Assembly (NCBI RefSeq): GCF_003018255.1
Contig: NZ_CP027440.1
Strand: one strand, 5' to 3'
Source: Escherichia coli
Lineage (GTDB): Bacteria; Pseudomonadota; Gammaproteobacteria; Enterobacterales; Enterobacteriaceae
Length of the DNA: 64,000 nucleotides
Part shown: in pieces, positions 13,725-61,555 of the stretch
Numbering within the stretch: the first letter of the stretch is position 1
Layout of the letters: the number at the start of each line of letters is the position of its first letter
Position numbers and translations under genes: made by a program
The notes under the pieces: model-generated
The model's input: the letters and a program-made list of their open reading frames with translations, nothing else
Told to the model about the DNA's origin: nothing
The model's database searches: none

Positions 13725-13915
13725 CTGGTGTTAATACCCGATCTTCTGCGCATCCTCGCGACTAATGACAACCCTAACCCAGCTCTATGTGGGTAAAGCC
13801 TCTCATTAGCCGCGCGAACCTCTGCAGCGGAAGATCATTCATAGCAACAATACATTAGTTTCCAGTGAATTGCTGCCGTCAGCTTGAAAAAAGGGGCCAC
13901 TCAGGCCCCCTTTTC
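13725..13915 (+). ncRNA. sraG: Possible SraG (PsrO) sRNA antisense to the pnp leader
   Basis: Recalled location of SraG in the rpsO-pnp intergenic region on the opposite strand; plus-strand hairpin ggggccactcaggcccc + TTTT at 13893..13914 would give its 3' end; 5' end not determined. Confidence 0.3.
13886..13914. terminator. Bidirectional hairpin terminator (rpsO terminator)
   Basis: aaaaaaggggccactcaggcccccttttct: GC stem flanked by A-run and T-run. Confidence 0.75.
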
Positions 13916-15740: not shown

Positions 15741-15771
15741 TTAATTTCAGGTGGAAGGGCTGTTCACGTTG

Positions 15772-15845
15772 GCCTGATAAGACGCGCCAGCGTCGCATCA
15801 GGCAATCCATGCCGGATGCGGCGTAAACGCCTTATCCCGCATGGA
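15772..15845. repeat. REP/BIME element
   Basis: gcctgataagacgcgccagcgtcgcatcaggc and gccggatgcggcgtaaacgccttatcccgc match the REP consensus. Confidence 0.65.
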
Positions 15846-21137: not shown

Positions 21138-22496
<1,359 letters not shown>

Positions 22497-22503
22497 TTCG
22501 ACA

Positions 22504-24129
22504 TCAACCCTGCCCTTCAGGGGTGGGGTTACCTTGCTTATCCTCTGTAAACTCCTTTCTGAGCATCACATAATCGAAAACATCATGGTTTGCATCCACA
22601 ACCCGTGAGTCTCCTTTATAGTGTGCAATCACTTCCTCCAGCGTTTTCGGTTGTTCCGGCTTTGTTACCCCCATCCACGCATTAATCAGGTAATTATTGT
22701 AAGCTGTGGAAAAGATGTTGTTTTCCGTTGTGCGATCCACGCCATCCCCAAGAACGGGGCTATACCAGATAAACATCGGGACATGATATGCCTGCTGGCT
22801 GGCCTCCCTGCCTCCATGAAAATAGACGTTCTTCTTCGTAGGGTCACGTTCCAGGCCGTGGTCGGCAAAATACATGACCGAGGCGCGGCGATCTTTTAAT
22901 AATTCAAAAACCTGACCTAGCAAACTATCTGTGTAATGAATGGAGTTGTCATAGCAGGCATCCTGATCGTCCTGCGGTTGAAACACGGCGCTGGATTGCG
23001 GATAGGCGCTACAAGCCGGTTCATGGCTTCCATTTAAATGAAGAACAATCAGTTTCTTTTGCTGCGTATTTTGCTGTAATGCTTGCGATAAATGCGGCAA
23101 CAACAATTCATCAAATCCTCTGACATAAACTGTTTCCATGGCGCGCATGGCGATACTGGTAACTGCTGTACCATTCTGCCGAAAAGCGGATTGCGAGCTT
23201 AGCCAGAAAGTCTGAAATCCTGCTTGATTAGCCATATTAATAATGTTGTCCGGGTAATTATGAATGTCATGACTCAAAACGGAATCAGCAGTTAAAGAAA
23301 GGGGAACCGACAGCGCAGTGTAAGGTGCACCGCTTATTGCTTGATTAAACAGTTTGATCTGTTTTCTTTGTGCTTCGACTTGCGGTGTCGTAGAGCGTGT
23401 ATATCCATACAAAGACATATTGTCGACGCGTACAGACTCCCCCACAATCAACACGTAGGTATCAATACCTGTATCCCTGACTGATAATTGAAAATACGGC
23501 ACCGTGTTTGCAATTGAGAGTAATCTTTGATGCTCTTTCGCTGCTAAAGCAAAATAATTGAGATTGAAAAACGGTGTATAGGTAGCAAATCGCGACGCTA
23601 GTATATATGGACTGAACGCTTTTTTATTTTTTGCATCTTTATAAGCAAATTGACAAGCGGAAAATAAACTGCCCGAAATGACAATCAGCAATAATATTCC
23701 TGTCACTTTTTTCGTCGGCAAGGAAACATCATATTTTATTATTACTGCCAAAAAAAGAAGGGATAAAAAGGCAAAAGCACATAGATAAGGGATATACATC
23801 CCCAGCATTTTGACAACTTCATCCGGATCACTCTGCAGCACACTAATCGCAAATCCATCATTGAAAGTTGTACCAAAGGTACACCATGAATAGAGGCTAA
23901 TACTCATGTCTGCCGCTGTCAGTAACACAAATGGTGCGGCAACAAGCAGGCGAAGCGGAAGGGATGATATACGTTTAACAACCAGGATGGTCAGAACGAA
24001 GAACAGCAATCGCTGAACCATATGCGCTCCGGAAGAGGCGACTAAGTTCGTAATACCAAAAACAATAACACAAAGATACAACAACCAATGAGATTTAAAA
24101 CTTCTAACAAATTTGTTGAATACTGTCAT
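22504..24129 (-). CDS. yhbX: Sulfatase-family putative phosphoethanolamine transferase YhbX
   Basis: Track ORF 22504..24162 trimmed to ATG 24129 (MTVFNKFV...), 541 aa; N-terminal TM helices plus sulfatase domain; markedly AT-rich. Confidence 0.85.
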   Translation of the reverse strand: MTVFNKFVRSFKSHWLLYLCVIVFGITNLVASSGAHMVQRLLFFVLTILVVKRISSLPLRLLVAAPFVLLTAADMSISLYSWCTFGTTFNDGFAISVLQSDPDEVVKMLGMYIPYLCAFAFLSLLFLAVIIKYDVSLPTKKVTGILLLIVISGSLFSACQFAYKDAKNKKAFSPYILASRFATYTPFFNLNYFALAAKEHQRLLSIANTVPYFQLSVRDTGIDTYVLIVGESVRVDNMSLYGYTRSTTPQVEAQRKQIKLFNQAISGAPYTALSVPLSLTADSVLSHDIHNYPDNIINMANQAGFQTFWLSSQSAFRQNGTAVTSIAMRAMETVYVRGFDELLLPHLSQALQQNTQQKKLIVLHLNGSHEPACSAYPQSSAVFQPQDDQDACYDNSIHYTDSLLGQVFELLKDRRASVMYFADHGLERDPTKKNVYFHGGREASQQAYHVPMFIWYSPVLGDGVDRTTENNIFSTAYNNYLINAWMGVTKPEQPKTLEEVIAHYKGDSRVVDANHDVFDYVMLRKEFTEDKQGNPTPEGQG

Positions 24130-24547
24130 CCAGAAATCCAAGTTCACAACCAATATAAACAATTATCAACAATGTTCAATTTTATATCAGACATGTTTTT
24201 CAACTCTGATCCATATCAGACCGAAACACTGTTAGTTTTTTCTTTTTAAATGATGCGGCCATTGTTCTCAGTAATTAAATAACATTATCAATGCGTCTCT
24301 AAACATTACGCAGAACGTAGCCATCAGTAGTTATACTGACAGGAGCAGGATGGTTTATCGAGAAGTAAACATATCCGTATTCGTACCGGAACTGGAGTTG
24401 ACACAATAAAGTGCCAATTATGTCAGCAGAAGGGAAAAGTTTATAACTAAGGCGTACCGATACCATCGTTTCAAAGTACCAGCTACGAGTAAAGCAACTG
24501 GACGAGATACAGATACCTGACAACCATTCCTCAGACCAGGACCAAAA

Positions 24548-24580
24548 CGAAAAAAGACGCTTTTCAGCGTCTCTTTTCTG
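24548..24580 (-). terminator. Intrinsic terminator after leuU
   Basis: Minus strand gacgctgaaaagcgtc hairpin followed by UUUUUU. Confidence 0.7.
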
Positions 24581-24585
24581 GAATT

Positions 24586-24672
24586 TGGTACCGAGGACGG
24601 GACTTGAACCCGTAAGCCCTATTGGGCACTACCACCTCAAGGTAGCGTGTCTACCAATTCCACCACCTCGGC
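24586..24672 (-). tRNA. leuU: tRNA-Leu (GAG)
   Basis: Reverse complement is GCCGAGGTGGTGGAATTGGTAGACACGCTACCTTGAGGTGGTAGTGCCCAATAGGGCTTACGGGTTCAAGTCCCGTCCTCGGTACCA: long variable arm, CCA end. Confidence 0.93.
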
Positions 24673-24686
24673 ACGGATACTACTTT

Positions 24687-25019
24687 TTAGTTCGGGATAT
24701 CGCTGGTCGGCTTAGCCGGAGCTGCTGGCTGAATTTGTTCGGTTTTCGTCGGCGCACTCAGGTTTTCCCATTCGCTACCTTTATTGGTTTTGTTGCTATT
24801 GATGTTACCCAGCACCAGACTGATGATGAAGAATAACGTTGCCAGCAGCGCTGTCATGCGGGTCATGAAGTTACCAGAACCACTTGAACCAAACAGCGTA
24901 GCGGAAGCGCCTGCTCCGAAGGAGGCTCCCATATCAGCGCCTTTACCTTGCTGCAGCATGATCAGACCAACAAGGCCAATTGCCACAATAAGGAAAACTA
25001 CTAAAAGAGCTTCGTACAT
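24687..25019 (-). CDS. secG: Protein-export membrane protein SecG
   Basis: Track ORF 24687..25067 trimmed to ATG 25019 (MYEALLVVFLIVAIGLVGLIMLQQGKGADMGASFG...), 110 aa. Confidence 0.94.
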   Translation of the reverse strand: MYEALLVVFLIVAIGLVGLIMLQQGKGADMGASFGAGASATLFGSSGSGNFMTRMTALLATLFFIISLVLGNINSNKTNKGSEWENLSAPTKTEQIQPAAPAKPTSDIPN

Positions 25020-31321: not shown

Positions 31322-31358
31322 GCAAAAAAATACCGACCCGGGTACAAGTCCCAGGTCA
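31322..31358 (-). promoter_or_regulatory. graL: Leader terminator in greA 5' region (GraL-type attenuator)
   Basis: Minus strand: imperfect stem ACCUGGG/CCCGGGU followed by a U7 run, about 100 nt upstream of the greA ATG; coordinates approximate. Confidence 0.4.
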
Positions 31359-31476
31359 GCTACAATTCACATTTTGATAGTCATTTTACCCTGAAGTTCC
31401 CGAAGGGTCATCGTTTACTTTATAGGGCGTTGCGCCGTAGTATGACGGCTCGATTCCAGGTTGTTAGCGCGAGATT

Positions 31477-52946: not shown

Positions 52947-53067
52947 GTGCGGCCTGAAAAACAGTGCTGTGCCCTTGTAACTCATCATAATAATTTACGG
53001 CGCAGCCAAGATTTCCCTGGTGTTGGCGCAGTATTCGCGCACCCCGGTCTAGCCGGGGTCATTTTTT
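52947..53067 (+). ncRNA. arcZ: ArcZ (SraH/RyhA) sRNA
   Basis: Sequence matches recalled ArcZ: gtgcggcctgaaaaacagtgctgtgccc...acggcgcagccaagatttccctggtgttggcgcagtattcgcgcaccccggtctagccggggtcatttttt; terminator hairpin plus T6 overlaps the arcB stop on the opposite strand; 5' end approximate. Confidence 0.75.
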
Positions 53068-55490: not shown

Positions 55491-56420
55491 CTACGCCGTT
55501 GGAGGTAGCCACGGACGTCCCAGCGCCGATCCCTGTACGCCATGTTCATTCAGATAACGATCCAGCTCGACCATTCCCGTCCATCGATTTTCGCACCACA
55601 GCGGAGCAAGCAGCGTCGGGCGACGGGCGCTGGCGGAAATGCGGTGGTAGATCACTTCCGGTGGCGTATGGCGAATCATTTCTCCGGCAGTGAGCGTGTA
55701 ATCCTCCAGTTCAATTCCGTTCAAACGCCCCGCTTCCCAGGCTTTCGCCATAATACTGCCTTTCACAATATGCAGCGGATGCAGCTTTATGCCGTCCACG
55801 CCGGTTTCAACCACTCGCTCCAGCGTTTGCAAACATTCCGTCTGCCCTTCGCCAGGCAGGCCGACAATTAAGTGGGAACACACCTTCAGCCCGCGCTGAC
55901 GTGCCAGCTGGGTTGTACGCTGATAACAGGCAAAATCATGGCCGCGGTTGATGCGATGCAGCGTTTTGTCGTGGGCGGTTTGTAGCCCCAGCTCCAGCCA
56001 CACTTCGTAACCCTGGTCCTTATATTCGCAAAGCAGATCCAGCACCGCATCCGGCACGCAGTCCGGGCGGGTACCAACACACAAACCGACAATATTGGCC
56101 TGGCTCACCGCCTGCTGATACATAGAACGCAGCACCTGAACTTCCGCAAAGGTGCTGGTATACGCCTGAAAGTAGGCCAGATAGCGTTTAGCGCGGTTAA
56201 CTAAATTCGCCTGGTGCGCCAGTTGCTCGGCAATGGAACGATGCTGCTGCGCTTCATCGGCAAACGAGGCCACATTACAGAATGTGCAGCCACCACGCCC
56301 GATGGTACCGTCACGGTTAGGGCAGCTAAAACCGCCGTGCAGCGTCAGCTTATGCACCTTTTGCCCATAACGACGGGTGAGATCACCACCAAACATATTG
56401 ACTAATTTCTGTAACTGCAT
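55491..56420 (-). CDS. yhcC: Radical SAM family protein YhcC
   Basis: Track ORF 55491..56453 (TTG) trimmed to in-frame ATG (MQLQKLVNMFGG...), 309 aa; Cys cluster CPNRDG...CTFC. Confidence 0.9.
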   Translation of the reverse strand: MQLQKLVNMFGGDLTRRYGQKVHKLTLHGGFSCPNRDGTIGRGGCTFCNVASFADEAQQHRSIAEQLAHQANLVNRAKRYLAYFQAYTSTFAEVQVLRSMYQQAVSQANIVGLCVGTRPDCVPDAVLDLLCEYKDQGYEVWLELGLQTAHDKTLHRINRGHDFACYQRTTQLARQRGLKVCSHLIVGLPGEGQTECLQTLERVVETGVDGIKLHPLHIVKGSIMAKAWEAGRLNGIELEDYTLTAGEMIRHTPPEVIYHRISASARRPTLLAPLWCENRWTGMVELDRYLNEHGVQGSALGRPWLPPTA

Positions 56421-57094
56421 AATCTGATAGACCGCGCCTTGAAAAGAGGCCAAAGCCTGCCATTTTTAGCCCAATTCGGCGATGACCTGGATCAATCGTC
56501 CCGGCCTGCTTTTATCAACTGCATAATCAATCAAAATTACCGAAATTTCATGCACAATCACATAAATCACTTTTGCTTATCTTGTGTCAGATTTTTTTAT
56601 CTCCTTATGGATTTTAGGCAAAAACAGTAGCATGAAACGTTATTACCAATTAAGGCAGTATAAAATGCTGGTTTTCTCGTCAGTTCAAGGCAGGATAAGG
56701 GTTAACACGCCTTTATGACAGTCAGGAATTGGCTGTTTCTCTAACGACGCCCCTTTTAGCCTTAAATAGAAAATCCACTTTAATTTCAGCCAATTAATAA
56801 AGAATTTTGCGCTAAAGCACATTTCTGTACCAATAAGCTTGCCATTTGACCTGTATCAGCTTTCCCGATAAGTTGGAAATCCGCTGGAAGCTTTCTGGAT
56901 GAGCAGCCTGCTCATCATATTTATGCAGTAATTGAGATCCCCTCTTCACCGTATTAACCGATGCGAAAAGGACAACAAGGGGGCGAATGCGAGGCGCGCG
57001 TATGACACGCAAACCCCGTCGCCACGCTCTTTCTGTGCCCGTGCGCAGCGGTTCGGAAGTGGGGTTCCCGCAGAGCCTGGGGGAGGTTCACGAT

Positions 57095-60000
57095 ATGTTG
57101 TACGATAAATCCCTTGAGAGGGATAACTGTGGTTTCGGCCTGATCGCCCACATAGAAGGCGAACCTAGCCACAAGGTAGTGCGTACTGCAATACACGCAC
57201 TGGCCCGCATGCAGCACCGTGGCGCGATTCTCGCCGATGGTAAAACCGGTGACGGTTGCGGCTTGCTGTTACAAAAACCGGATCGCTTTTTTCGCATCGT
57301 TGCGCAGGAGCGCGGCTGGCGTTTAGCAAAAAACTACGCCGTCGGGATGCTCTTCCTGAATAAAGATCCTGAACTCGCCGCTGCCGCACGCCGCATCGTT
57401 GAAGAAGAGCTGCAACGCGAAACGTTGTCGATTGTGGGCTGGCGTGATGTCCCCACTAACGAAGGCGTGCTGGGTGAAATCGCCCTCTCCTCTCTGCCAC
57501 GCATTGAGCAAATTTTTGTGAACGCCCCGGCAGGCTGGCGTCCGCGCGATATGGAGCGCCGTCTGTTTATCGCCCGCCGCCGCATTGAAAAGCGTCTCGA
57601 AGCCGACAAAGACTTCTACGTCTGTAGCCTGTCGAATCTGGTCAATATTTATAAAGGTCTGTGTATGCCGGCGGATCTGCCGCGCTTCTACCTGGACCTC
57701 GCGGACCTGCGTCTGGAATCGGCTATCTGCCTGTTTCACCAGCGCTTTTCCACTAACACCGTACCGCGCTGGCCGCTGGCGCAGCCGTTCCGCTACCTCG
57801 CGCATAACGGTGAAATCAACACCATCACCGGTAACCGCCAATGGGCGCGTGCGCGTACCTATAAATTCCAGACGCCGCTGATCCCTGACCTGCACGACGC
57901 CGCGCCGTTCGTCAACGAAACCGGCTCTGACTCCAGTTCGATGGATAACATGCTGGAACTCCTGCTGGCAGGCGGGATGGATATCATCCGTGCCATGCGT
58001 CTGTTAGTGCCACCAGCCTGGCAGAACAACCCGGATATGGACCCGGAACTGCGTGCCTTCTTTGACTTTAACTCCATGCATATGGAGCCGTGGGATGGTC
58101 CGGCAGGGATCGTGATGTCCGATGGCCGTTTCGCCGCCTGTAACCTCGACCGTAACGGTCTGCGTCCGGCACGCTACGTCATCACCAAAGATAAACTGAT
58201 CACCTGCGCCTCTGAAGTCGGTATCTGGGATTATCAGCCTGACGAAGTGGTCGAAAAAGGCCGCGTAGGGCCAGGCGAACTGATGGTGATCGACACTCGC
58301 AGTGGGCGCATTCTACACTCGGCAGAAACCGATGATGACCTGAAAAGCCGCCATCCCTATAAAGAGTGGATGGAGAAAAACGTCCGCCGTCTGGTACCGT
58401 TTGAAGATCTGCCCGATGAAGAAGTGGGTAGCCGCGAACTGGACGACGACACGCTTGCCAGCTACCAGAAACAATTTAACTACAGCGCGGAAGAGCTGGA
58501 TTCGGTGATCCGCGTACTGGGTGAAAACGGTCAGGAAGCGGTCGGTTCGATGGGCGACGATACCCCATTCGCCGTGCTCTCCAGCCAGCCGCGCATTATT
58601 TACGACTACTTCCGCCAGCAGTTTGCTCAGGTAACCAACCCGCCAATCGACCCGCTGCGCGAAGCGCATGTTATGTCGCTCGCCACCAGTATCGGTCGTG
58701 AAATGAACGTCTTCTGTGAAGCAGAAGGCCAGGCGCACCGTTTAAGCTTTAAATCGCCGATTCTGCTCTATTCCGATTTCAAACAGCTCACGACGATGAA
58801 AGAGGATCACTACCGCGCAGATACGCTGGATATCACCTTTGACGTCACTAAAACCACGCTCGAAGCGACGGTGAAAGAGCTGTGCGACAAAGCCGAAAAA
58901 ATGGTACGTAGTGGCACCGTGCTGCTGGTGCTCTCCGACCGGAATATCGCTAAAGATCGCCTGCCGGTTCCGGCTCCGATGGCGGTTGGCGCGATCCAGA
59001 CCCGTCTTGTCGAGCAAAGCCTGCGTTGCGATGCCAACATCATCGTAGAAACCGCCAGCGCCCGTGATCCGCACCACTTCGCCGTGTTGCTGGGTTTCGG
59101 CGCGACGGCTATTTATCCATACCTTGCCTATGAAACGCTGGGCCGCCTGGTAGACACCCACGCGATTGCCAAAGATTATCGTACCGTGATGCTCAACTAT
59201 CGTAACGGCATCAACAAAGGCTTGTACAAAATCATGTCCAAAATGGGCATCTCCACCATCGCCTCTTACCGCTGCTCGAAACTGTTTGAAGCGGTCGGTC
59301 TGCACGATGATGTCGTGGGCCTGTGCTTCCAGGGGGCGGTTAGCCGCATTGGGGGGGCTAGCTTTGAAGACTTCCAGCAGGATCTGCTGAATCTGTCGAA
59401 ACGAGCCTGGCTGGCGCGTAAGCCTATCAGCCAGGGCGGCCTGCTGAAATACGTGCACGGTGGCGAATACCACGCCTACAATCCGGACGTGGTGCGCACG
59501 CTGCAACAGGCGGTACAGAGCGGCGAGTATAGCGACTATCAGGAATACGCGAAGCTGGTTAATGAGCGTCCGGCAACCACGCTACGCGATCTGCTGGCAA
59601 TTACGCCGGGTGAAAACGCGGTCAACATTGCTGATGTTGAACCGGCAAGCGAACTGTTTAAACGCTTCGATACCGCCGCGATGTCTATCGGCGCGTTAAG
59701 CCCGGAAGCCCACGAGGCGCTGGCGGAAGCGATGAACAGCATCGGCGGTAACTCAAACTCCGGCGAAGGCGGTGAAGACCCGGCGCGCTATGGCACTAAC
59801 AAAGTGTCGCGCATCAAGCAGGTGGCGTCCGGTCGCTTCGGCGTTACTCCGGCGTACCTGGTCAATGCCGACGTCATTCAGATAAAAGTCGCCCAGGGCG
59901 CGAAGCCGGGTGAAGGTGGTCAGTTACCGGGTGATAAAGTCACTCCTTACATTGCCAAACTGCGCTATTCGGTGCCGGGCGTGACGCTGATCTCCCCGCC

Positions 60001-61555
60001 GCCGCACCACGATATCTACTCTATTGAGGATTTAGCGCAGCTGATTTTCGACCTCAAGCAGGTTAACCCGAAAGCGATGATCTCCGTGAAGCTGGTTTCC
60101 GAACCGGGCGTAGGCACCATCGCGACTGGCGTGGCAAAAGCTTATGCCGATTTAATCACCATCGCAGGCTATGACGGCGGCACCGGCGCAAGTCCGCTTT
60201 CATCGGTGAAATACGCAGGCTGTCCGTGGGAGCTGGGGCTTGTTGAAACCCAACAGGCGCTGGTTGCCAACGGCTTGCGTCACAAGATCCGTTTGCAGGT
60301 CGATGGCGGCCTGAAAACGGGTGTCGATATCATCAAAGCAGCGATTCTTGGCGCGGAAAGTTTTGGCTTCGGCACTGGCCCGATGGTAGCGCTTGGCTGT
60401 AAATATCTGCGAATTTGCCACCTGAACAACTGCGCCACGGGTGTAGCAACTCAGGATGACAAACTGCGTAAGAATCACTATCACGGCCTGCCGTTCAAAG
60501 TGACTAATTACTTTGAGTTTATCGCCCGTGAAACCCGCGAGCTGATGGCACAGCTGGGGGTAACGCGTCTGGTGGATCTGATTGGTCGCACCGACCTGCT
60601 GAAAGAGCTGGACGGTTTCACCGCCAAACAGCAGAAACTGGCACTGTCGAAGCTGCTGGAGACTGCTGAGCCGCATGCTGGTAAAGCGCTCTACTGCACC
60701 GAAAACAACCCGCCGTTTGATAACGGCCTGCTGAACGCGCAGTTGCTGCAACAGGCAAAACCGTTTGTCGATGAACGCCAGAGCAAAACCTTCTGGTTCG
60801 ATATCCGCAACACCGACCGTTCTGTCGGCGCATCGCTTTCAGGCTATATCGCCCAGACGCACGGCGATCAGGGGCTGGCTGCCGATCCTATCAAAGCGTA
60901 CTTCAACGGCACCGCAGGCCAGAGCTTCGGCGTGTGGAACGCGGGCGGCGTGGAACTGTACCTGACCGGTGATGCCAACGACTATGTCGGTAAAGGCATG
61001 GCGGGCGGCTTAATCGCCATTCGTCCTCCGGTTGGCTCAGCCTTCCGCAGCCATGAAGCGAGCATTATCGGCAACACCTGCCTGTATGGCGCGACCGGTG
61101 GTCGTCTGTATGCCGCAGGCCGCGCGGGTGAACGTTTCGGCGTGCGTAACTCCGGTGCTATCACCGTGGTAGAAGGCATTGGCGACAACGGCTGTGAATA
61201 TATGACGGGTGGTATCGTCTGTATTCTGGGTAAAACCGGCGTTAACTTCGGCGCAGGCATGACTGGCGGCTTCGCTTACGTTCTCGATGAAAGCGGCGAT
61301 TTCCGCAAACGCGTTAACCCGGAACTGGTCGAGGTCTTAAGCGTTGACGATCTGGCGATCCATGAAGAGCATCTGCGCGGTCTTATCACCGAGCATGTTC
61401 AGCATACCGGTTCTCAGCGCGGTGAAGAGATTCTGGCGAACTGGTCAACCTTCGCCACTAAATTTGCGCTGGTTAAACCGAAGTCCAGTGATGTAAAAGC
61501 ACTGCTGGGTCACCGTAGTCGTAGCGCAGCAGAGTTGCGCGTGCAGGCGCAGTAA
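57095..61555 (+). CDS. gltB: Glutamate synthase (NADPH) large subunit
   Basis: Track ORF 56987..61555; start set at ATG 57095 (MLYDKSLERDNCGFGLIA...) preceded by GGGGGAGG Shine-Dalgarno, 1486 aa; in-frame ATGs at 56987 and 57002 are alternatives. Confidence 0.95.
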   Translation: MLYDKSLERDNCGFGLIAHIEGEPSHKVVRTAIHALARMQHRGAILADGKTGDGCGLLLQKPDRFFRIVAQERGWRLAKNYAVGMLFLNKDPELAAAARRIVEEELQRETLSIVGWRDVPTNEGVLGEIALSSLPRIEQIFVNAPAGWRPRDMERRLFIARRRIEKRLEADKDFYVCSLSNLVNIYKGLCMPADLPRFYLDLADLRLESAICLFHQRFSTNTVPRWPLAQPFRYLAHNGEINTITGNRQWARARTYKFQTPLIPDLHDAAPFVNETGSDSSSMDNMLELLLAGGMDIIRAMRLLVPPAWQNNPDMDPELRAFFDFNSMHMEPWDGPAGIVMSDGRFAACNLDRNGLRPARYVITKDKLITCASEVGIWDYQPDEVVEKGRVGPGELMVIDTRSGRILHSAETDDDLKSRHPYKEWMEKNVRRLVPFEDLPDEEVGSRELDDDTLASYQKQFNYSAEELDSVIRVLGENGQEAVGSMGDDTPFAVLSSQPRIIYDYFRQQFAQVTNPPIDPLREAHVMSLATSIGREMNVFCEAEGQAHRLSFKSPILLYSDFKQLTTMKEDHYRADTLDITFDVTKTTLEATVKELCDKAEKMVRSGTVLLVLSDRNIAKDRLPVPAPMAVGAIQTRLVEQSLRCDANIIVETASARDPHHFAVLLGFGATAIYPYLAYETLGRLVDTHAIAKDYRTVMLNYRNGINKGLYKIMSKMGISTIASYRCSKLFEAVGLHDDVVGLCFQGAVSRIGGASFEDFQQDLLNLSKRAWLARKPISQGGLLKYVHGGEYHAYNPDVVRTLQQAVQSGEYSDYQEYAKLVNERPATTLRDLLAITPGENAVNIADVEPASELFKRFDTAAMSIGALSPEAHEALAEAMNSIGGNSNSGEGGEDPARYGTNKVSRIKQVASGRFGVTPAYLVNADVIQIKVAQGAKPGEGGQLPGDKVTPYIAKLRYSVPGVTLISPPPHHDIYSIEDLAQLIFDLKQVNPKAMISVKLVSEPGVGTIATGVAKAYADLITIAGYDGGTGASPLSSVKYAGCPWELGLVETQQALVANGLRHKIRLQVDGGLKTGVDIIKAAILGAESFGFGTGPMVALGCKYLRICHLNNCATGVATQDDKLRKNHYHGLPFKVTNYFEFIARETRELMAQLGVTRLVDLIGRTDLLKELDGFTAKQQKLALSKLLETAEPHAGKALYCTENNPPFDNGLLNAQLLQQAKPFVDERQSKTFWFDIRNTDRSVGASLSGYIAQTHGDQGLAADPIKAYFNGTAGQSFGVWNAGGVELYLTGDANDYVGKGMAGGLIAIRPPVGSAFRSHEASIIGNTCLYGATGGRLYAAGRAGERFGVRNSGAITVVEGIGDNGCEYMTGGIVCILGKTGVNFGAGMTGGFAYVLDESGDFRKRVNPELVEVLSVDDLAIHEEHLRGLITEHVQHTGSQRGEEILANWSTFATKFALVKPKSSDVKALLGHRSRSAAELRVQAQ

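Follow-up and report, generated by a model that had tools for sequence, protein, structure and literature searches.

yhbX of Escherichia coli as a likely gene replacement between argG and leuU, independent of the neighbouring tRNA

In E. coli, the AT-rich gene yhbX lies close to a tRNA gene, which raises the question of how it came to its position and whether the tRNA played any role in its arrival. In the window, by which we mean the whole 64-kb stretch of DNA that was analysed, argG (argininosuccinate synthase, plus strand, 21153..22496) is intact according to open reading frame and annotation and ends with ...NKGQ-TAA. It is followed on the minus strand by yhbX (22504..24129), which encodes an inner-membrane protein of the phosphoethanolamine (PEtN) transferase family with 541 amino acids, and by leuU (minus strand, 24586..24672), which is recognized by ARAGORN and by the Rfam tRNA model as tRNA-Leu(GAG). 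An earlier sequence-only reading of this DNA had placed argG, yhbX and the tRNA-Leu gene with correct coordinates and gene calls, and it had interpreted yhbX as an old, horizontally acquired and probably H-NS-silenced gene at a classic tRNA integration position. We consider it quite probable that yhbX is a horizontally acquired E. coli/Shigella gene that replaced an XRE-family gene together with the argG terminator, that no tRNA-targeting integrase took part in this, and that YhbX functions as an enzyme of the PEtN family. yhbX is an already known gene and the mechanism is an ordinary one, and the main value of the analysis lies in annotation and in caution.

Composition of the yhbX segment

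The region between argG and leuU (22497-24585) has a GC content of 42.0%, which is practically the lowest value reached by any 2089-bp stretch of the 64 kb. Non-overlapping stretches of this size have 52.3 ± 2.0% GC with a minimum of 47.4%, and the islet thus deviates with z = -5.3. In the coding sequence of yhbX, GC amounts to 43.1%, as compared to 52.4 ± 2.3% in 40 neighbouring genes (z = -4.1), and with a GC3 of 42.6% the gene ranks last among the 41 genes of the window. The local codon-adaptation score is also low (z = -1.85), and GC2 is unremarkable (z = -0.7). Sliding GC and codon usage are therefore not uniform, and yhbX is indeed more AT-rich than its neighbours, as had been noticed before. 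In the upstream region, which had likewise been described as visibly AT-rich, the spacer 24130-24585 is low with 37.9% GC (the part belonging to the variable segment, 24130..24543 on the minus strand, has about 38%), yet it is inside the range of the other intergenic regions here (34.6-61%). Within yhbX, GC3 is graded, with 36.7% for residues 1-180, 40.0% for residues 181-360 and 51.1% for residues 361-541, and the host-like GC3 of the 3' third could be due to amelioration, to mosaicism or to amino-acid constraint.

The XRE gene that occupies the same slot in other loci is still more AT-rich, with 37-40% GC in four species. As this gene is apparently ancestral, AT-richness alone is a weak argument for an acquisition, and it cannot serve to date one either, since the XRE gene seems to have stayed at that composition. 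Together with the patchy distribution at a conserved locus that is described below, however, the atypical composition of yhbX is typical of a horizontally acquired gene, and this part of the sequence-only reading is supported.

Every open reading frame and annotated gene between argG and leuU is part of yhbX, with no integrase reading frame among them, an Rfam search of the islet gave no RNA family match, and by blastn the region upstream of yhbX (24130..24543) had no homology to the other fetched loci. Sigma-70-like hexamers are found upstream of yhbX at 24190-24152. For K-12, a weak SELEX peak (intensity 3.2) of a minor sigma factor has been reported in the yhbX-leuU spacer, where it is listed in the heat-shock sigma section (PMC5493296). 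As to a silencing by H-NS, AT-richness is the one characteristic of H-NS-silenced xenogeneic genes that has been seen in yhbX. The high-affinity H-NS motif is not enriched (4 two-mismatch matches in the 2.1-kb islet, as compared to 1.2 per kb window-wide), and no entry for yhbX (b3173) was found in the searched supplementary data of published H-NS and nucleoid studies.

The two boundaries and the role of the tRNA

Alignments delimit the yhbX-specific variable segment to 22499..24543, i.e. to 2045 bp with about 42% GC. On the argG side, the junction is at about 22498/22499, only 2 nt past the argG stop, which is exactly where the homology with E. marmotae and the other XRE-type loci ends. In these loci, argG is followed by a canonical terminator, AAAGGCCGC-N4-GCGGCC-T7 (a GGCCGC-N4-GCGGCC-T7 hairpin), which is present where E. 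coli, E. marmotae and Salmonella carry the XRE gene, and also in several other genera, and which is missing from the yhbX version of the locus. The C-terminus and stop of argG are the same as in E. marmotae, where the terminator comes next. A breakpoint inside the last two argG codons had been considered, as argG ends with ...VK in the E. coli XRE version and with ...GQ in the yhbX version, but E. marmotae also has ...GQ-TAA followed by the terminator, which rules this out. Because its argG ends with ...VK, the XRE cassette of E. coli is not the direct progenitor of the yhbX version and may be a re-import.

The stops of the convergent genes argG and yhbX are separated by exactly 7 bp (22497..22503), and a scan between and just past the two stops detected no canonical intrinsic terminator, which bears out the earlier observation that there is no room for one. 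The sole candidate for an argG stop signal is an 11-bp hairpin (AACCCUGCCCU-UCA-GGGGUGGGGUU; 22506..22530) that folds within the final yhbX codons, and it is weak: with -17.7 kcal/mol it does not differ significantly from shuffled sequences (z = -1.3) and its T-run is too weak, and it was therefore rejected as a replacement terminator. The loss of the terminator and the spacing of 7 bp would explain the overlapping argG and yhbX transcripts of MG1655, and the missing terminator fits the published overlap of the two transcripts, as argG-yhbX has been listed among 165 convergent excludons (the "excludome") of MG1655 on the basis of RNA-seq (PMC12288877). Like the other convergent excludons, the two genes converge with no terminator in between, but in this case the overlap seems to be a side effect of a replacement that removed the terminator. 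Such a replacement would account for the transcript overlap in K-12.

On the other side, the variable DNA has its boundary at 24543/24544. Between this boundary and the tRNA lies the intrinsic terminator of the secG-leuU transcript (minus strand, 24549..24578; 13-bp stem and T-run), which is the conserved right anchor of the slot. Its sequence does not differ between the three E. coli locus types and shows a conservation of 88-94% in Citrobacter, Salmonella, Kluyvera and Pluralibacter, and homology across the E. coli locus types and the genera runs through it to 24544. The variable DNA thus begins at a distance of about 42 nt from where the tRNA has its 3' end. It is correct that the tRNA is nearby, but the islet does not abut it, as the leuU terminator intervenes.

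The sequence-only reading leads to a model in which the islet entered the 3' end of leuU by site-specific integration, with integrase and att sites eroded since and the gene now silenced by H-NS. AT-rich DNA does lie next to a tRNA gene here, on its 3' side, and a YhbX paralogue with 65% identity travels beside a P4-type integrase on an island next to yqgA-speC, which both speak for such an origin. The tRNA has not been the crossover site, however, with the variable DNA beginning outside the leuU terminator, and the left junction next to the argG stop removed a terminator, which is unlike an insertion at an att site. The absence of an integrase and of a direct repeat of the tRNA 3' end, which the reading itself had conceded, is confirmed: the best local alignment of the tRNA and its terminator to 22300-24543 has a score of 10, as compared to a shuffle mean of 10.1, and a repeat search of the islet for tRNA-derived repeats gave only short matches as typical of chance. 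None of the features of tRNA-integrated islands – an integrase at the tRNA, a distal repeat of the tRNA 3' end, an insertion inside the tRNA 3' end – has been found, evidence for H-NS was not found either, and the same slot in other genera contains unrelated cargo without integrase. The integration route of that model is thus largely refuted, and the model as a whole is very unlikely. The yhbX segment is most probably a gene replacement at a variable spot and not a tRNA-targeted island. It resembles the islands of P4-type integrases, such as those at pheV, in that accessory DNA rich in AT lies near a tRNA gene, and such an island even carries the paralogue as cargo, but it differs from them in having neither integrase nor att repeats and in a boundary outside the tRNA terminator. 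Being AT-rich and tRNA-adjacent alone is no proof of an integration at a tRNA site.

Occupants of the argG-leuU slot and the replacement

In E. coli, yhbX is present in 5178 of 5426 complete genomes (about 95%) with 97.7-100% identity, and 237 of the 5426 (about 4.4%) carry the XRE cassette in its place. The two genes did not co-occur in any of the loci read. In one E. coli genome, the slot contains only a 273-bp spacer, in which a 78-bp relic of the XRE gene is found. The XRE gene encodes an XRE-family helix-turn-helix protein of 317-319 amino acids, for which PADLOC and PHROGs gave only weak matches restricted to the helix-turn-helix, and it is preceded by the canonical argG terminator. It also occupies this slot in Salmonella enterica (where one sequence was seen on at least 1000 contigs), Citrobacter koseri and E. 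marmotae, and these slots were reached via a search with the XRE protein. yhbX is absent from them, as it is from the rimP-argG-leuU-secG slot of 16 other Enterobacteriaceae among the matches listed, a survey by ArgG search that covered a subsample of contigs, without Salmonella and, except for the misnamed "Escherichia sp. ESNIH1", without Escherichia. The gene is thus not universally conserved at this locus. Also in a published comparison, no YhbX is listed for Salmonella LT2 or C. rodentium (PMC4013655). The timing after the E. marmotae split rests on one sister species, since E. albertii, E. fergusonii and other cryptic clades were outside the sample. That the acquisition is old, as had been proposed, is supported by the presence of yhbX in 95% of the E. 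coli genomes and by a dS that is similar to that of the flanking genes.

In other genera, the cargo of the slot is unrelated: an MscS-like protein, an autotransporter and an acyl-CoA dehydrogenase in Pluralibacter, an AraC regulator and CMD in Kluyvera, and further unrelated cargo in "Escherichia sp. ESNIH1" and RIT691. No integrase families were detected among ten insert proteins scanned from these other slots. The argG-leuU slot is thus a general hot spot for unrelated cargo. Integrase-free hot spots between core genes are known from pangenome studies as replacement islands that are exchanged through homologous flanks. With its two conserved anchors (argG stop and leuU terminator) and with cargos that are mutually exclusive within a species and unrelated across genera, the slot resembles them, but it is very small, holding only one gene, and in E. 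coli one of its states is close to fixation.

The XRE gene is apparently the older occupant, judged by its divergence, which tracks that of the flanking genes: between E. coli and E. marmotae its dS is 0.24, as compared to 0.17-0.52 in the flanks, and in the comparisons with Salmonella and C. koseri its dS is saturated, which also holds for most of the flanks. Alternatively, it could be a mobile cassette that repeatedly targeted the slot and not an ancestral resident. The opposite polarity, with yhbX ancestral to Escherichia, Salmonella and Citrobacter and repeatedly lost, its low GC due to membrane composition and low expression, and the XRE gene as a later invader, is the least probable of the explanations considered and highly improbable in itself. 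It would agree with the ordinary GC2 of yhbX, with the location of its most AT-rich part, which encodes the hydrophobic N-terminal domain, and with the AT-richness of the XRE gene. But GC3 of yhbX is the lowest in the window as well, the gene is missing in 16 of 16 syntenic loci listed from other genera and also in E. marmotae, Salmonella and C. koseri, the divergence of the XRE gene matches the species tree and its cassette keeps the conserved argG terminator, and among 1.8 billion cluster representatives there is no relative of YhbX with more than 65% identity outside E. coli/Shigella.

Replacement of the XRE gene by yhbX may thus be pictured as follows. The permissive slot lies between the convergent core units argG (rightwards) and secG-leuU (leftwards), and its older state would be the XRE gene with the canonical argG terminator before it. 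An AT-rich segment of 2.05 kb with yhbX and its promoter region would have taken the place of all DNA that began 2 nt past the argG stop and ended just short of the leuU terminator, and in the alignments the yhbX-specific DNA does stand in for terminator, XRE gene and spacer. This may have occurred by illegitimate recombination or by homologous exchange via the conserved flanks, without a tRNA-targeting integrase; we infer this route, as no donor has been identified and no scars of a mechanism remain. The replacement would have taken away the argG terminator, leaving the yhbX end 7 bp from argG and a tail of 13 residues on its product. Both locus types still segregate in E. coli. The locus would thus show at base resolution how a resident gene, together with the terminator of its neighbour, can give way to a foreign gene between two conserved anchors and without machinery of mobile elements.

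The persistence of both states in E. coli could also suggest a functional either/or polymorphism under balancing or niche selection instead of a nearly fixed neutral replacement. At least two haplotypes that differ by about 3% are found in the XRE version (229 genomes with at least 99% identity and 8 with about 97%), the flanks of an XRE-carrying strain are near-identical to K-12 until about 250 bp from the junction, which indicates an exchange by short-tract recombination, and both genes look intact and constrained. However, the identity of 229 of the 237 XRE genomes is 99% or higher, as could also be found in a single clonal sublineage, and neither gene has a known phenotype, which makes such a polymorphism unlikely. 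A specific version of it, in which read-through from argG, de-repressed at low arginine, runs antisense to yhbX and shuts it down, whereby arginine would be coupled to envelope modification and the polymorphism maintained, is similarly doubtful. If it were true, the yhbX and XRE states would be kept by different envelope or regulatory phenotypes.

YhbX as a PEtN transferase-like protein

YhbX matches PF00884 with its residues 224-467 (E = 2.2e-56), i.e. a catalytic domain of the sulfatase/alkaline phosphatase type. This is preceded by about 5 hydrophobic segments, with hydropathy peaks at about 13-35, 37-59, 59-80, 108-139 and 141-163. PF00884 is the only Pfam match and no family was assigned to the N-terminal domain, but the alignment to full-length EptA begins already at residue 41, in agreement with an N-terminal membrane domain of about 5 helices. 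The best match among solved structures is EptC (5zzu; E = 8e-24). Alignments to EptC and to NmEptA (5fgn) show that YhbX has retained the GSH, DHG and H-x-P motifs, and E231 and T271 of YhbX align with E240 and T280 of NmEptA. With a dN/dS of 0.042 relative to K-12, the gene is under purifying selection. Judged from this fold and these catalytic residues, which are EptA/EptC/MCR-like, YhbX is predicted to be a working enzyme of the PEtN transferase family, and it deserves to be flagged in annotations as an intact and constrained PEtN transferase-like enzyme.

Like the lipid A PEtN transferases EptA (PmrC) and MCR-1, YhbX consists of an N-terminal membrane domain with several helices and a periplasmic domain of the sulfatase fold, with the Glu zinc ligand, the Thr nucleophile and the three motifs kept in the alignment, but it is only about 25-30% identical to them. 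All 19 NCBIfam models of PEtN transferases (EptA, EptB, CptA/EptC, MCR-1 to MCR-13) score YhbX far below their cut-offs, the best with 156.5 bits as compared to a cut-off of 500, and YhbX therefore represents a separate subfamily. PADLOC defence profiles gave no match with YhbX. Five PEtN transferase paralogues are counted in E. coli (in part after PMC4013655), and the function of YhbX has not been established (PMC4013655). It belongs to the envelope-related PEtN transferases of E. coli as do EptC (CptA) and OpgE (YbiP), but these are listed also for Salmonella LT2 and Citrobacter rodentium (PMC4013655), whereas yhbX is restricted to E. coli/Shigella and compositionally atypical. By analogy to its family, YhbX most likely adds phosphoethanolamine from phosphatidylethanolamine to a glycan or lipid at the periplasmic face of the envelope.

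At the C-terminus, pairwise alignments define an extension of 13 residues (…TEDKQGNPTPEGQG; 22507..22545, minus strand). It is absent in a plasmid-encoded paralogue and in P0121, P0122, P0124 and P0125, where the alignments end before it. The relatives were collected by a 50%-cluster search and by tblastn against plasmids. Two fragments among those with 68-88% identity were rejected as divergent orthologues: L091 is ordinary E. coli with 98.3% identity, and L092, with 82.6% identity and collinear with E. coli, has 33% GC and looks bisulfite-converted. The closest relatives are the paralogue of plasmid pRHB40-C01_2 and the island paralogue, both with 65% amino acid identity, and all further relatives in the 50%-cluster search are at most 48% identical. 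The island paralogue is encoded beside the P4-type integrase next to yqgA-speC, a site that we take to be the pheV locus of the K-12 map, in 455-664 E. coli genomes. A mobile paralogue with 65% identity is thus present in 8-12% of the E. coli genomes, and it may be of interest with respect to envelope modification and to enzymes of the polymyxin-resistance type.

The argG-leuU interval and its composition

In the window, which is E. coli chromosome and over the islet region is 100% identical to strain JNE23-011, annotation transfer together with ORF and tRNA tools places argG at 21153-22496 (+), yhbX, coding for 541 aa, at 22504-24129 (-), the tRNA-Leu(GAG) gene leuU at 24586-24672 (-), and secG at 24687-25019 (-). 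A strong intrinsic terminator of the secG-leuU transcript (24549-24578) separates the tRNA from the AT-rich DNA. The stop codons of argG and yhbX are separated by exactly 7 bp, a terminator scan found no canonical terminator at this junction, and the sole hairpin remaining there (22506-22530), within the last yhbX codons, is no better than shuffles (z = -1.3). Neither the ORFs nor the transferred annotation of the argG-leuU interval include an integrase. Computation thus confirms what the sequence-only reading had described, namely an AT-rich islet, the 7-bp gap, and the lack of a terminator, an integrase and a tRNA repeat.

The AT-rich islet is real. With 42.0% GC, 22497-24585 is essentially the minimum among 2089-bp stretches of the 64 kb, the non-overlapping windows of this size having 52.3 ± 2.0% and at least 47.4% (islet z = -5.3). 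The yhbX coding sequence has 43.1% GC, as compared with 52.4 ± 2.3% in 40 neighbouring genes (z = -4.1), and its GC3 of 42.6% (neighbours 55.3 ± 5.5%) is the lowest of the 41, whereas GC2 is unremarkable (37.3% versus 40.1 ± 4.1%, z = -0.7), and the AT bias is therefore not an amino-acid effect alone. The GC comparison that had been proposed as a check hence shows a departure from the neighbours and no uniformity. The bias is graded along the gene, with GC3 values of 36.7%, 40.0% and 51.1% by thirds, the 3' third being host-like. The gene had also been thought to be probably H-NS-silenced; an AT content of 60-64% across 23200-24540 makes H-NS binding there plausible on general grounds, a motif scan showed no enrichment of the high-affinity motif in the islet, and no entry for yhbX was found in the consulted supplements of H-NS and nucleoid papers.

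No Rfam RNA element lies inside the islet. Those detected in other parts of the window are SraG, naRNA4, the greA leader and ArcZ (13743-13914, 15771-15841, 31325-31446, 52947-53054), together with the S15 and rimP leaders. The second-lowest GC patch (56300-57000, 39-41%) is intergenic, between a 320-aa minus-strand ORF (55491-56453) and a 1522-aa ORF (56987-61555), which by K-12 gene order are probably yhcC and gltB.

Probable replacement of an XRE-family gene and of the argG terminator

Among 5426 complete E. coli genomes, 5425 have the argG and leuU-secG flanks. The slot between them holds yhbX in 5178 (97.7-100% identity), in 237 a gene in argG orientation for a 317-aa XRE-family helix-turn-helix protein, and in one (strain E7-1N7) a spacer of 273 bp in which 78 bp of the XRE gene survive as a relic, which makes the states mutually exclusive. 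In genomes that lack yhbX, the interval is matched over its final 42 nt only, which is the leuU terminator. The XRE-carrying genomes comprise 229 that are mutually at least 99% identical and 8 at about 97%. Between K-12 and an XRE-carrying strain the flanks are nearly identical up to about 250 bp from the junction, which is consistent with the two versions having been swapped through homologous recombination in the flanks.

The presence/absence comparison indicates which state is older. Among the loci listed, those of 16 further Enterobacteriaceae in which rimP, argG, leuU and secG are syntenic gave no yhbX homologue within ±10 kb. The XRE gene, in contrast to yhbX, occupies the slot in Salmonella enterica (71% aa identity, one sequence on at least 1000 contigs; locus L093:5001-5960), Citrobacter koseri (73%; L095:5001-5960) and Escherichia marmotae (89%; L097:1904-2857, species assigned by an exact ArgG match), as it does in E. 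coli E110019 (L083:7015-7968). Its divergence tracks that of the flanks, as dS between E. coli and E. marmotae is 0.24 (flanks 0.17-0.52), and dS against Salmonella and C. koseri is saturated, like for most flanks. Low GC by itself would mislead here, because the XRE gene likewise has only 37-40% in all four species. In the simplest reading, the terminator and the XRE gene are the ancestral slot content of the Escherichia-Salmonella-Citrobacter group, and the yhbX segment (22499-24543) would have replaced both in the E. coli lineage. The proposal of an acquired gene is thereby supported and sharpened, since yhbX would have displaced an older gene along with the argG terminator.

The boundaries were set by aligning the three E. 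coli slot states with E. marmotae and Salmonella. On the right, the variable DNA ends at 24543/24544, immediately outside the leuU terminator, which is conserved between genera; on the left it begins at about 22498/22499, 2 nt past the argG stop. A left break within the final two argG codons was considered, as ArgG ends in ...VK in XRE-carrying E. coli and in ...GQ in the yhbX version, but in E. marmotae the terminator comes after an argG that ends in ...GQ-TAA, and argG is thus untouched in the yhbX version. What is missing from that version is the canonical argG terminator AAAGGCCGC-N4-GCGGCC-T7 (-22 kcal/mol, z = -3.3), which E. coli, E. marmotae and Salmonella have at their loci with the XRE gene, and which also follows argG in Citrobacter youngae, C. 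werkmanii, Kluyvera, Superficieibacter and others. With this terminator gone and 7 bp between the stops, the argG and yhbX transcripts must overlap, and consistent with this, argG-yhbX is one of 165 convergent MG1655 excludons defined by RNA-seq coverage found in 50% or more of the analysed datasets (PMC12288877). The region tolerates engineering, as the argG-yhbX gap has accepted synthetic operons (PMC12421378) and the leuU-yhbX spacer a cat cassette (bioRxiv 10.1101/2023.02.03.527047).

The XRE-family protein (317-319 aa) is fast-evolving: comparing E. coli with Salmonella, its dN is about 0.19 and that of the flanks 0.02. Profile matches are confined to its N-terminal 40-60 residues, and Photorhabdus, Serratia, Pseudomonas and Acinetobacter are among the genera that have homologues of 52-57% identity. 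Both yhbX and the XRE gene are sometimes disrupted by IS1, ISSen4 or IS903B (e.g. NZ_CP184062.1, NZ_CM135183.1, NZ_CP022154.1, NZ_LR883965.1), and in Shigella sonnei blaCTX-M-15 is reported to have integrated in the chromosome near yhbX (PMC9973847).

A hot spot for unrelated cargo

In most genera argG and leuU are 120-570 bp apart. The slot behaves as a hot spot across genera, some of which hold unrelated cargo there: Pluralibacter gergoviae has 8.4 kb encoding an MscS-like protein, an autotransporter and an acyl-CoA dehydrogenase, Kluyvera an AraC regulator and a CMD-family protein, 'Escherichia sp. ESNIH1' a metallophosphoesterase, a histidine phosphatase and an SDR, and RIT691 a winged-helix and an OmpA-like protein. 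Ten insert proteins scanned from such cargo include no integrase family. The arrival of yhbX is probably an ordinary hot-spot replacement; the idea of a classic tRNA integration site found no support, and the search for a duplicated tRNA fragment in the islet yielded no copy (best local alignment score 10 versus a null of 10.1).

The YhbX protein and its relatives

The gene and its family were already known. YhbX combines about five hydrophobic segments at the N-terminus with a domain of the sulfatase fold (PF00884, E = 2e-56). Its nearest relatives of solved structure are EptC (5zzu) and Neisseria EptA (5fgn), and in alignment with them it retains T271 as the nucleophilic Thr and E231 as the Glu that binds metal, along with the motifs GSH, DHG and H-x-P. 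It scores far beneath the curated cut-offs for EptA, EptB, CptA and MCR, and thus represents a distinct subfamily. By family, its putative activity is most likely the transfer of phosphoethanolamine to an acceptor at the periplasmic face, and a dN/dS of 0.042 (versus K-12) indicates that a function is maintained. YhbX has a 13-residue C-terminal tail that is absent in all relatives compared. Its codons run as far as the junction itself, which suggests that the original 3' end was altered as the segment landed.

[quoted passage not shown] A yhbX knockout emerged in a screen for raised β-galactosidase from a pspA-lacZ reporter; the authors set aside five of the six knockouts that were confirmed, some of them for acting on the envelope or on permeability, and the passage does not name which (PMC4551910). 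The 3' part of yhbX carries GAGGAAGTGATTGCAC (22623-22638, -), a predicted GalR operator-like match given for yhbX/b3173, and according to the abstract no regulation of the newly identified targets was seen under standard growth conditions (PMC5110547).

Among 1.84 billion representatives of 50%-identity clusters, YhbX of E. coli forms an isolated cluster: the next full-length clusters are metagenomic and 41-48% identical. The only relatives found at 50-90% identity are paralogues carried by E. coli. One, 65% identical, is on the 62-kb plasmid pRHB40-C01_2 (L099). Another, the 557-aa protein P0461 (2955 member sequences; about 65% identical to YhbX and 91% to the plasmid gene), has its gene immediately next to that of a P4-type integrase, on an island adjoining yqgA-speC-nupG (E. 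coli contigs L101:6001-9033 and L102:1492-4524), and 455-664 of the 5426 genomes carry this family. The subfamily is thus demonstrably mobile; the copy at leuU is without mobility genes. The P0461 island also has an H-NS-like and a WYL-domain gene.

Some NCBI records call full-length YhbX 'phosphate starvation-inducible protein PsiE' or 'arylsulfatase' (e.g. the protein sequences P0004, P0085, P0116 and P0527), which look like annotation errors, since the sequences themselves are YhbX. Contig L092 (Logan SRR3359616) aligns collinearly with E. coli ftsH-argG in an ungapped stretch of 8354 bp, but with an identity of 82.6% and a GC content of 33%; it has the look of an assembly of bisulfite-converted reads, and such contigs yield spurious 'divergent homologues' in protein collections.
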